Source of the DNA: Polyangiaceae bacterium
Lineage (GTDB): Bacteria; Myxococcota_A; Polyangia; Polyangiales; Polyangiaceae
DNA: 64,000 nucleotides
Direction of reading: 5' to 3'
Assembly: GCA_041389765.1 (NCBI GenBank)
Contig: JAWKRE010000002.1
Span: 139,908-203,907 of the forward strand
Shown here piece after piece: positions 53,105 to 62,650 of the stretch. The position numbers were made by a program, and so were the translations under genes. The stretch's first letter is position 1, and each line of letters starts with the position of its first letter. The notes below the pieces were generated by a model, which was not told the origin of the DNA, searched no databases, and worked only from the letters and a program-made list of their open reading frames with translations.

Positions 53105-56100
53105 TCACTTCCTGGTTTTTTTCAGGGCTCGTTTCGCCCGGGGCTTCGCGGCCGAGGGCGTCTTTTTCGGCGCGGTCCCCGGCTTCACGGGCGACCGTCG
53201 CGCGGCTCGCTGGCCTGGCTCGTCGAGGAACCCCTCGGGCAGTCCGGGCAAGAGGCCGAGGTCCAGCTCCAGGTTCACCGAGCGGCCGTTTGCAGCGGCG
53301 CCGACGGTGAACGAGCCGTAGGCGAGCACGGACAGCGTGGCGATTCCGTCGCGGGCTTGCACCTCCATCGCGGGCCCCTCGAAGTCAGTGTGCAGGTAGA
53401 AGACGACCTGTCCCGTCAGGGGGCGTTCGGGATCGGTCGATGAAACGGCAAGCTCGACGGCGAACCAGCCGTCCCTGTTCTTCTCGACCCTGGCCGAGAG
53501 CAACAGGCCGTCGCGCTCCGGAAGGTCGCCCCAGCGGCCTTTTTGCGGGTCGTCGCGGTCAGGGGGTGGGCTGCGCTCTGCCAGCCACAGAATGCGGCTC
53601 TCGAAGAGGTGAGTCAGCCCGCCGGCGCGGTAGGCGCGAGCGATGCGCTGAAATGCCTCATGTCCAGTGTCGGACGTGAACGTCAGCAATTCCGTGGCGT
53701 GCAGCAAGGACAGCCCGGGGTCGCCCGTCATCGTGCGGAGAAAGGACTCGATGGCCCCTGAATCGAAGGGGCGGTCGAGCCCGATTCTCATGGAGAAGCG
53801 GACGGGATGGCCAGTCCCGGGGGGCGCCTCGGGAGGTTCCCCGAGCAACGCTCTCCGGATGCCGGCCCAGACCTCGCGTAGCTCGTTCATCGAGGGGCAC
53901 ACGGCCAGCACGTCGGCCAGGAGGGCTGGAGACAGCACGTCGGCGAGGATGCTCGAAGAGATGTCCGGCCTTTCCGTGAGCGCCTCGTGGGCCTCCGAGG
54001 TCGCCCGCGCGAGGTGCGCGGACGCTGTCAGGGTGCGACCGTCACCGCGGGCTCGGAGGACGGCGAGGTCGATCTCGGTCGCTGCATCACTGGCCCGGAA
54101 TGCGTGCTCGTCGCAGGGGCAATCGAGCCATGCGCGCGTGGCCTGGAGCGCCTCGTAGAGCGGTGTCCAGGGCTCGTCCGGGCGAGCCCACCGGAGGACT
54201 GTTTCGAGGGCGCTCGAGGCCGCCAGCAGCGTCACATCCGCTCCCCATGTCTGGAGCAATGGAGAGAGCGCCAGCACGATGGCCTCCCTGTCTTGCGGCG
54301 CAGCGCCGAAAATGCTGCGGACGAGATACCCATCGCGCGGAAATCTGCCCAACGAGAGGATGACGGGGCTCGTTCCCTTCTCGTGGAGGTCAGGGAGCCA
54401 GGCGGAGCTTCCGACCAGGCAGAGGCTGCCTTGATGCGCCCTGAATACGCGCAGGAAGTCTCGGATTGCCGGGACGCGCGAGGGTTGGATGTTGTCGACG
54501 CCGTCCAGGATCACGATCCCCTGCCGCGCGCAGATCTGGAGCGCCAGATCCTCGCCGAACGGGGTGTTCCTCGCTCCGCCGAACATCCGCGCCGCCGTGC
54601 GGGCGAGCTTGCCTGTCGCCTCCGGTTCGCCCAGGACGATGGAACAACCCACGACACCGCGCCCGTCCTGGGGCAATGTCTCTGCCCAGCGGCGAAGGAG
54701 CCGGGAGCGAGCGGCGAGGGGATGGCCCACGAGCCAGACGACGCCGGACCCTTCCAGGGAGGATACCCTGCGGCGGAGATGCTCCACCGCCGCGTCGCCG
54801 AACAGCCCTGTTCCAGGGGCGCTCCACAGATCCTTGAGGTCCCGTCCCTGGGGGTGCTCGTTGCTCTGGAGCCGCCGGTCGATCCGTTGAAGGATGTACT
54901 GGCTGAGAGCTTGAATGTCCGTGTCCCTCGCGGTGTGCCTGTATTCTGCGCTATGAACCTGCTCCACCATCCCGCGGAGGTCGACGAGCGAGGTTGTCGA
55001 CAGATGATCGACAAGCCCATTGCCGGCCAGCAGGGCGGAATATTGCTCGAATCTGGAGCGCGGATTCGTCAGAACCTGACGCAGGAGCCTGAGCCGTGGC
55101 TCCGCGGGGGCGGGGCGGGCGATCGCGGCTGCGATGGCCAGCAAGCGTCTTCCGGGGCTGTCGCTCGCGGCGAGCTCGGCGAGCTGCCACGCATGCAATC
55201 CGGCGCTGGTTGCGAACGACTCCATCTCTCGGCGGATGAGGGTCATTCGCGCTGTCCTCGCCGAGCCCCACGGCAAGGTCTCGCGGATCTCATCGTAGCT
55301 TGTTGCGAGGCGGGTGATCTCGGTGTCTCGATCCGTGACGAGCTGCCAGGCTTGCCGCACCATGTCGGCGGGGCAGATGAGCATTCCACCGGACATCTCT
55401 TCCAGAGCGGCGGGTGACTCCGGACCACGGATGTGACCGCAGACGCGCCCGTCCACGAGGAGGGGGCCGCCGACCATCCCCAGCGTGTCCTCTCCATCGC
55501 CCCGCGCGAGCACCTGCCAATCTCCTGGCGGACCCGCGCCGCGACCGGTCACCGCGCGCCGCTCCGGTCGTTCGTTCGTTGCGGGCGACTCGTGGCTCGG
55601 GGGGCTTCCCTCGAACCCCAGCGCGGCCCACGGGGTGTCTTCGCCGATACCGGGGCCGATCTCGTACGGCGCTGCGCTCGCCAGGGGAGGGTCACTCAGG
55701 CGAAGAAGGGCAAGGTCGCGCTGTTCGTCCGTATACAATACGAATGCTTTGCGGCGCTCTTCCGTGGGGGAACCCTCTTGTGGGTACAGCACCTCGGGGT
55801 AAGAGCCGCTCGCGATGACAGACTCCAGCCCGGAGACCGTTGTCGCCACGAGATCGGGCGCCAGCAGGTAGCCACTCTGCATGGACTGCCCGGCTCGGAT
55901 CTGCACGCACCCCGACCACCAGGCCTCCGGCACCTCCGCTCGGGGCTGCTCCGCGGTGCCCTCTTGTGGAGCGCCCTCTTGCGCGCCTCCCGCCTGCTCC
56001 GCCCCCTCGTGCACGGCGGCCGCTTGCCTCGCCCGGCGCACCTCGTGGATGCTTCCGTCGATGGTCTTGAGCTGCACCACCTCTCCGGGCATTTCCGTTT

Positions 56101-62650: not shown

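Follow-up and report, generated by a model that had tools for sequence, protein, structure and literature searches.

A trypsin-bearing MoxR-vWA operon with a divergent membrane gene in a Polyangiaceae bacterium: a likely TERNS3-type ternary conflict system

The genes considered here lie in a 64,000-nucleotide stretch of DNA from a Polyangiaceae bacterium, a soil myxobacterium (GenBank assembly GCA_041389765.1, contig JAWKRE010000002.1, positions 139,908 to 203,907 of the forward strand), which is referred to throughout as the window. Four minus-strand genes, A to D in order of transcription, encode a trypsin-like protease with a C-terminal module, a MoxR-class AAA+ ATPase, a vWA protein, and a large multidomain protein; a fifth gene, E, is transcribed divergently from A and encodes a membrane protein (Table 1). 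The relation of this cluster to the MoxR-vWA ternary systems, predicted to be bacterial conflict systems, is the subject of this report.

Because the G+C content of the window is about 69%, raw open reading frame (ORF) lists are full of spurious frames; genes were picked by codon-position G+C together with the ORF list, which gave four genes on the minus strand and a divergent one on the plus strand. A preliminary description of this DNA had proposed four co-directional minus-strand genes separated by 8-50 bp. The genes were borne out (53105-60260) and the spacing was roughly right: 19 bp separate A and B; the B-C gap is 85 bp with the NCBI start of C, or 25-52 bp with upstream GTG codons; and C and D are +8 or -4 bp apart, the GTG start of D (56887) overlapping the stop codon of C by 4 bp, as in Sorangium orthologues. 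A scan of the A/E intergenic region and the operon for a sigma-70-like promoter found none, and a scan for a terminator-like site inside the A-D operon was likewise empty. Downstream of the operon, D (stop 53105) and a sulfatase gene (stop 53089) are convergent, with 15 bp between the stop codons; a hairpin with a T-run at 53097-53115 (plus strand) in this gap could be the sulfatase terminator. A second Polyangiaceae metagenome-assembled genome (MAG), GCA_041389705.1 (L050, contig of 78,658 bp), carries the same cluster with proteins that are 100% identical, although the contig end cuts off D.

Table 1. Coordinates of the cluster, its protein domains, and other annotated genes (positions are those of the window).
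Feature	Coordinates	Strand	Description
Gene A	58833-60260	-	475 aa; third component, trypsin + TERNS3-N + TERNS3
Trypsin-like (S1/HtrA-like) protease domain of A	59769-60191	-	Intact triad H40/D84/S159
TERNS3-N + TERNS3 of A	58857-59609	-	Residues 218-468; TERNS3-N helical, with a conserved 'SWVD'-type motif; TERNS3 alpha/beta
Gene B	57959-58813	-	284 aa; MoxR-class AAA+ ATPase
Gene C	56884-57873	-	329 aa, NCBI call (P0001, Polyangiaceae MAG); predicted stand-alone vWA co-chaperone
vWA domain of C	56887-57486	-	
Gene D	53105-56875 (ATG, 1256 aa) or to 56887 (GTG, 1260 aa)	-	vWA-L + effector/sensor array
vWA-L domain of D	56015-56869	-	Residues 3-287; N-terminal module common to all fourth-slot proteins
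Trypsin-like domain of D, judged dead	55436-55876	-	Residues 334-480; Trypsin_2, 26.2 bits vs cut-off of 27.6
Putative degenerate P-loop NTPase core of D	54404-54751	-	Residues 709-824
pYEATS domain of D	53258-53464	-	Residues 1138-1206; PF20305, E=1.5e-11, 44.5 bits vs cut-off of 26.9
Divergent intergenic region A/E	60261-60355	.	95 bp; both promoters presumed here, from position
Gene E	60356-62650	+	764-aa membrane protein; frame supported by third-codon-position G+C (GC3)
AAA_5 ATPase	44494-46050	+	518 aa
DUF2201 protein	46117-47583	+	Putative metallopeptidase N-domain, VWA-like C-domain
Major Vault Protein homologue	48268-50754	+	MVP_shoulder, E=2.4e-30; Vault_3

Protein A joins a protease to the module that ties the cluster to a published class. 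A Pfam scan places a Trypsin_2 match at residues 24-164 (E=3.8e-10), and H40, D84, and S159 are invariant in an alignment of five orthologues; from this intact catalytic triad the domain is judged to be active. In a structure model of A the protease half matches HtrA/DegS by Foldseek, and nothing else was matched. For A, B, and C, the hydropathy scan showed neither a transmembrane (TM) segment nor a signal peptide. The C-terminal part of A was compared with that of proteins in the first slot of related loci, i.e., the gene 5′ of MoxR (position of A). Residues 218-468 match, at E=7.8e-17, a profile of the C-terminal regions of these proteins that was built from related loci only (nearly all TIR-type), with the window excluded; residues 197-426 also match the published TERNS3 protein HBL29163.1 (L003, 6764-8836) by BLASTP at E=4e-11. 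The C-terminal ~270 residues of first-slot proteins are homologous across trypsin-type and TIR-type loci. The predicted secondary structure of the module in A, which is of low confidence, runs from a helical bundle into beta-alpha repeats. No Pfam match of A to VMAP-C or VMAP-M was found at E<=1, and hhalign comparisons of the first-slot C-terminal alignment with the active STAND modules of the family (E=0.33) and with the degenerate region of D (E=0.086) were not significant.

Protein B was described from the start as a small MoxR-like AAA+ ATPase, and the profile and motif evidence agrees: AAA_5 matches at E=1.8e-14, Walker A (GDPGSGKS) and Walker B (VVLLDE) are both intact, and the closest PDB relatives are the AAA domains of midasin. 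The bpMoxR model of Pfam scores 26.8 bits vs a cut-off of 27. Forty-three residues precede the AAA_5 match, and WxhapG/PsWRxa motifs are not visible. Assignment of B as a 'MadB family AAA ATPase' (NCBIfam, 55 bits vs a cut-off of 475) or as PADLOC mad8 was rejected, since such matches were taken to reflect AAA similarity in general; nothing relevant emerged when the literature on MadB was searched.

The vWA assignment of C needed a structure model, because sequence-only searches gave nothing significant: Pfam offers just a faint VWA_CoxE match (E=0.028), which recurs in 6/36 members of the C family; Pfam, NCBIfam, and PADLOC have no significant match; and an hmmsearch of PDB sequences with the C-family profile was empty. 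By fold search, the best structural matches are NorD, of the NorQD metal-insertion complex, and the metal-ion-dependent adhesion site (MIDAS) domain of midasin, so that the vWA-like assignment, on which the preliminary description had staked its reading, holds at the level of fold. Upstream of the vWA domain, a pair of short helices is conserved (GDLLRAL...LLG), and a disordered linker rich in Pro extends over ~100 aa. Within the family, the Asp at the end of strand 1 (D189, VLVDxGxGM) is invariant and the strand-4 Asp (D254, VLSDLG) is kept in at least 90% of sequences. On the modelled fold, C is predicted to be the stand-alone vWA partner of B, of the NorD/CoxE structural type.

Protein D belongs to the fourth slot of the cluster, which is defined by the gene for a vWA-L protein. 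Residues 3-287 match a profile of 39 fourth-slot N-termini, the window excluded, at E=4e-55; from its position and from natural fusions in related proteins, we infer that this module is the domain named 'vWA-L' by Kaur et al. The trypsin-like domain that follows, described earlier as a second peptidase, retains the fold at a score just below the Pfam cut-off and has lost the means of catalysis. In an alignment with A and the D orthologues, its His position reads ATTVSG, Ser is replaced by Val (GMVGGP), and only the Asp is kept; the domain is judged to be catalytically dead. A STAND-like NTPase with a Walker A that lacks Lys had also been proposed for D. The Walker-A position does read GHPLAARS (54704-54727), with no GK[ST] and with Arg for Lys, and a Walker-B-like IVILDGVD is present; Sorangium orthologues have GGPQLWRT at Walker A, then ILDG[VL]D. 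The fold itself gives faint matches: AAA_22 at E=0.017 for residues 709-824, the active STAND modules of the family by hhalign at E=0.018 in the expected register, and the Ras Walker B at E~0.7.

The pYEATS domain near the C-terminus of D, which the preliminary description had missed, is presumably a binding or sensor module; Sorangium orthologues of D also have it, and their NCBI name is 'pYEATS domain-containing protein'. The hydropathy scan showed one hydrophobic stretch in D (residues 974-994). The Sorangium orthologues lack the Lys/Pro/Ala-rich basic tail at residues 1223-1256 of D (53108-53209, minus strand; RSPVKPGTAPKKTPSAAKPRAKRALKKTRK), which might bind nucleic acid or serve as a disordered tether. 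D is the vWA-L/effector component and not an iSTAND third component; what defines the system is the TERNS3 module that makes up the C-terminal half of A, rather than an inactive STAND module in D.

MoxR-vWA ternary systems in which VMAP, iSTAND, FtsH, or a beta-propeller forms the third component were described by Kaur et al. (2020; PMC7159879), and iSTAND2 and TERNS3 were added by Kaur, Iyer, Burroughs, and Aravind (eLife 2021; PMC8195603). TERNS3 systems have the order [TIR or protease]+TERNS3-N+TERNS3 -> MoxR -> vWA -> vWA-L+variable effectors, where TERNS3 is a novel alpha+beta domain most commonly fused to TIR and less often to proteases (PMC8195603). The table of that paper lists HBL29163.1 (DD490_20220, 690 aa, GCA_003504885.1) as 'CASPASE+TIR+TERNS3-N+TERNS3 -> MoxR -> vWA', KYF52375.1 of Sorangium cellulosum as 'trypsin+TERNS3-N+TERNS3 -> MoxR', and effector genes with the architecture 'vWA-L+Trypsin+STAND'. 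The locus L003 comes from the assembly of HBL29163.1; its first-slot gene, of 690 aa, corresponds to that protein by assembly, length, and locus-tag order, and its vWA protein (P0019, DD490_20210) is a member of the C family. Because of this shared locus, the profile matches of A and D, and the table entries, the window cluster is a TERNS3-type system in its trypsin variant. Membership of the TERNS3 class is very probable; that the cluster represents a MoxR-vWA ternary conflict system of the TERNS3 type, in a rare protease-signalling variant of Polyangiaceae, is likely; and a role in conflict or defence as such is favoured, with somewhat more reserve. The idea of an undescribed split-vWA variant of VMAP/iSTAND was dropped given the 2021 description of TERNS3 and iSTAND2 and the shared locus.

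The linkage of these genes was followed through relatives of C, whose family has 3060 representatives at 50% identity (1509 with E<=1e-30). Forty-seven loci with a C homologue were compared, 4 from exact-protein look-ups and 43 from a one-genome-per-species scan with a trimmed 14-sequence alignment, covering Streptomyces, Lentzea, Actinoplanes, Actinosynnema, Myxococcaceae, Chloroflexia, Thermoanaerobaculia, Pyrinomonadaceae, and Longimicrobium. Most of the loci belong to Streptomyces, Actinoplanes, Lentzea, myxobacteria, and Chloroflexia, with others in Acidobacteriota and Longimicrobium; the order first-slot gene, MoxR, vWA, vWA-L is conserved in Actinomycetota, Myxococcota, Acidobacteriota, Chloroflexota, and Gemmatimonadota. 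A B homologue (40-51% identity) lies directly upstream of C in 44/47 loci and a homologue of the D N-terminus directly downstream in 43/47, the exceptions being truncated contigs and three Streptomyces loci with the vWA-L gene upstream on the other strand. In these three (L007, L013, and L017; ~4.1-5.2 kb) the best vWA-L match is ~5 kb upstream on the opposite strand with none downstream; they may represent a rearranged operon or a second system. The absence of linkage in related genomes had been named as a result that would speak against a ternary system; the conserved linkage in the 47 loci, with the match to published TERNS3 systems (PMC8195603), upholds that reading.

A linear megaplasmid of Streptomyces also carries the four genes in this order, annotated 'TIR domain protein / MoxR family ATPase / hypothetical / TPR protein'; two C-family members are on Streptomyces megaplasmids, and a search of phage records for a C-family member found none. 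What is attached to the MoxR-vWA core changes from locus to locus. Among first-slot proteins, TIR_2 is found in 40/44 and trypsin in that of the window only. The arrays that follow vWA-L in the fourth slot are highly variable and include AAA_16/NB-ARC/NACHT with TPR or WD40, TIR, CHAT, LCAT-like, PNP_UDP_1+TCAD9, Glyco_hydro_15, HTH, and TPR-S modules; Walker A is intact in 18/39 of the related fourth-slot proteins. The constant core, in which MoxR, vWA, and vWA-L are almost always adjacent, is thus set against attached modules all of which vary. In P0096 (1842 aa) and P0091 (607 aa), the vWA domain is naturally fused to vWA-L and effectors, which in P0096 include a caspase-like region (read by eye), GSPGTGKS, and a lipase-like end. 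P0005, P0090, and P0188 have an extra region that separates the N-terminal helices from the vWA domain, and that of P0005 has precomputed TIR matches.

Trypsin-type loci are rare. A search of 5.8 billion proteins returned only four close homologues of A, two from Sorangium genomes and the other two from metagenomic contigs. Homologues of D led to two more protease-type loci; A orthologues are known from three Sorangium genomes and from metagenomes. The C-terminus of D differs even among these loci: three have pYEATS, So ce117 has an AAA_16/AAA_35 STAND module, and one metagenome has PNP_UDP_1. Directly 3′ of the operon of Sorangium sp. So ce117 (L053, 12761-18834) are genes for PNP_UDP_1+CTD2, MComp1, and an SMC_N/AAA_15 ATPase; because these resemble another conflict cluster, that operon is in a defence-island-like setting, unlike the one in the window.

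Gene E was initially noted as a divergently transcribed two-TM protein with a large ectodomain that could be an associated sensor. Its association with the system is supported by conserved adjacency within the trypsin-type subclade: an E homologue (25-36% identity, E from 1e-21 to 1e-61) divergently adjoins the A orthologue in L048, L049, L051 (partial), L052, and L053, making six loci with the window, and a seventh trypsin-type locus, on a Logan contig, probably has it, in the form of a correspondingly placed gene of 738 aa without known domains. Outside the five-gene block, the window and the Sorangium genomes have different flanks. No E homologue was found in the 47 related, mostly TIR-type, loci. 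The adjacency of E to trypsin-type operons is a new observation, absent from the published entry. By hydropathy, E begins with a signal-like segment, which precedes a conserved periplasmic domain of ~235 aa and a TM segment at ~267-290; these are followed by a helical region of ~400 aa that is predicted to be cytoplasmic, in place of the large ectodomain first described, then a Gly/Pro-rich stretch, a C-terminal TM segment at 702-727, and a conserved FVGT..ELLTL.ALGFG motif. No similarity of E was found in Pfam, NCBIfam, PADLOC, or PDB. Two-TM SLATT proteins adjoin some TIR-type TERNS3 loci (L004, 2734-3726, and two rows of the PMC8195603 table), a placement that parallels that of E at trypsin-type operons.

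The neighbours of the cluster in the window are the sulfatase gene, sensor kinases, and a MoxR/DUF2201/vault-protein cluster. The last is a second MoxR-like set (44494-50754, plus strand; Table 1), co-directional and tightly packed, with only the sulfatase gene between it and the five-gene cluster. Farther away, at 37617-42110 (plus strand), a 1497-aa hybrid protein combines a CheB methylesterase, a CheR methyltransferase, several PAS domains, HisKA/HATPase, and a receiver domain.

Several results weigh against the assignment of the cluster to a conflict system of the TERNS3 type, or against parts of it. No obvious defence island surrounds the cluster within the window, and PADLOC and NCBIfam have no model for such a system. 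The MIDAS of the C family is degenerate, both Ser residues of DxSxS being replaced by Gly (DxGxG), and canonical metal-mediated peptide capture by C is therefore not assured. The TERNS3 fold of A is not readable from its structure model, which was built from a 5-sequence alignment and is poor (predicted local distance difference test score, pLDDT, of 58.7). A degenerate P-loop NTPase fold in D is weakly suggested by three faint signals that share one register. Finally, a search for TERNS3 in the searchable literature found no paper besides PMC8195603 and no experimental test, so that function and mechanism rest on comparative inference; as anticipated in the preliminary description, few such systems have been studied experimentally, and among MoxR-vWA ternary relatives the search found only a preprint on the Esr pathway.

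The mechanism proposed for the TERNS3-type cluster draws on the precedent of NorQD, CoxDE, and midasin and on the model of Kaur et al. A MoxR ring, a hexamer of B, would act via the vWA protein C to hold or remodel an assembly of D and A in a 'threshold' step that depends on ATP; vWA-L would dock D, and TERNS3 would dock A. The trigger might be bound by the C-terminal modules of D (pYEATS and the dead NTPase), by TERNS3, or by the periplasmic domain of E; of the parts of D, the pYEATS domain and the eroded NTPase would be the likeliest to bind a ligand or serve as a scaffold. Triggering would free the protease of A, giving a proteolytic signal in place of the nucleotide signal made by TIR, and the protease would cut a target, most plausibly D or E, with growth arrest or death of the invaded cell as the outcome. 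That the protease of A is the output signal is an evenly poised proposal. The dead trypsin domain of D could be a partner or decoy of the active protease, and E could be an envelope sensor or a protease-activated membrane effector, although a place for E as sensor or target is put forward only tentatively. Similarly speculative is the proposal that the protease-type TERNS3 systems of Polyangiaceae are five-component, envelope-linked systems in which E either is a sensor gating MoxR-vWA or is an effector cleaved by A; as a cleaved effector, E would be the functional counterpart of SLATT, and the dead trypsin domain of D would be a pseudo-enzyme partner or decoy.

The position of E also bears on the alternative that fares best, a non-lethal envelope pathway for threat sensing. 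By analogy to Esr, E would sense a cue from outside the cell or in the periplasm, e.g., phage adsorption, contact with a predator or competitor, or cell-wall damage, and would signal through MoxR-vWA to the protease, which would set off the non-lethal response. The divergent retention of E at six trypsin-type loci, with a seventh probable, fits such a pathway, as does its combination of a conserved periplasmic domain with a long helical region that is predicted to be cytoplasmic, and the related MoxR-vWA system Esr has been shown experimentally to be threat-sensing (bioRxiv 10.64898/2026.09.08.750141). E is, however, absent from the 47 related loci and so is not core; the relatives bear classic effectors of cell death or abortive infection (TIR, caspase/CHAT, PNP, lipase-like), with SLATT proteins as neighbours, and the window operon includes no kinase, FHA domain, or transcription factor. 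A non-lethal pathway is accordingly considered unlikely.

Highly unlikely is programmed cell death in development or kin discrimination, e.g., fruiting-body lysis, in which the same machinery would answer to triggers from self. This would suit a family that is concentrated in Streptomyces, Actinoplanes, Lentzea, and myxobacteria, and Kaur et al. found a multicellular habit to be significantly associated (p=4.1e-17; PMC8195603). The fast turnover of effector and sensor modules nevertheless fits an arms race better than a fixed programme. The family is also present in Acidobacteriota, Gemmatimonadota, and Accumulibacter, lineages that are not known to undergo development.

Scarcely credible, in turn, is a housekeeping MoxR-vWA chaperone pair that matures one complex, as NorQ-NorD, CoxD-CoxE, and RavA-ViaA do, with the proteases in quality control: NorD, in the NorQD complex, is the closest structural match of C, VWA_CoxE is the only recurrent Pfam hint, and the neighbours in the window are ordinary metabolic and signalling genes, but the client-side parts vary among close relatives and carry immune or death domains (TIR, CHAT, NB-ARC/NACHT, PNP_UDP_1, TCAD9), which is the opposite of a conserved client enzyme, and the family is patchily distributed over phyla, megaplasmids included, and is catalogued among conflict systems (PMC8195603).

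As a TERNS3-type conflict system, the cluster falls within the MoxR-vWA ternary systems; these form some of the largest families of immune or apoptosis-like systems predicted in bacteria. Its protease-type version is a compact five-gene unit that offers catalytic handles in Ser159 of A and the Walker motifs of B, together with a contrast between a live and a dead protease; these make the model of an 'ATP-dependent threshold plus proteolytic signal' directly testable. The conserved E is a new lead on the coupling of such cytoplasmic machines to the cell envelope.

Among characterized machines, NorQ-NorD, CoxD-CoxE, and midasin likewise pair a MoxR-class AAA+ ATPase with a vWA partner. These remodel a fixed client (cNOR, CO dehydrogenase, and pre-60S particles, respectively), whereas the client-side parts here are variable immune-type modules, and C differs from the NorD/CoxE/midasin type in the replacement of the MIDAS serines (DxGxG). 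Esr, a MoxR-vWA-beta-propeller pathway of oral Actinomycetes that has been shown experimentally to sense threats and to induce Esx secretion (bioRxiv 10.64898/2026.09.08.750141), resembles the five-gene cluster in its MoxR-vWA core, to which it adds a surface sensor, and the nearest specific Pfam model of B is bpMoxR; the beta-propeller filaments, Ser/Thr kinase, phosphatase, FHA domain, and Esx output of Esr have no counterpart in the cluster.

VMAP systems (Kaur et al., 2020) have a similar order, from a third component with trypsin, TIR, or cyclase through MoxR to a vWA protein with variable effectors, and share TCAD9 and PNP effectors with the related loci. They differ in that A has no VMAP-C/VMAP-M match and B no N-terminal WxhapG/PsWRxa extension; in addition, in most VMAP and iSTAND systems the vWA-L domain and effector array are fused to the vWA protein (Kaur et al.), but here vWA and effector array are split over two genes. 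The iSTAND and iSTAND2 systems (Kaur et al., 2020, 2021) also combine MoxR and vWA with a third component that has an N-terminal trypsin, TIR, or EAD domain, and iSTAND2 further resembles the cluster in its separate gene for vWA-L plus effector and in 'vWA-L+Trypsin+STAND' architectures. Their third component is an inactive STAND NTPase, in contrast to TERNS3, which is a distinct alpha+beta domain according to its authors; moreover, trypsin in iSTAND2 is usually joined via EAD adaptors, whereas in A it is fused directly.

The published TERNS3 systems match A-B-C-D in gene order and content, and HBL29163.1 is a detectable homologue of A. They are mostly of the TIR type, and the main text of that paper does not name trypsin as a partner. 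The Sorangium entry KYF52375.1 covers the first two genes only, without the vWA protein, the protein with vWA-L, dead trypsin, degenerate P-loop, and pYEATS, or E. Both the complete protease-type operon and the membrane protein conserved beside it, E, add modestly to this published class.

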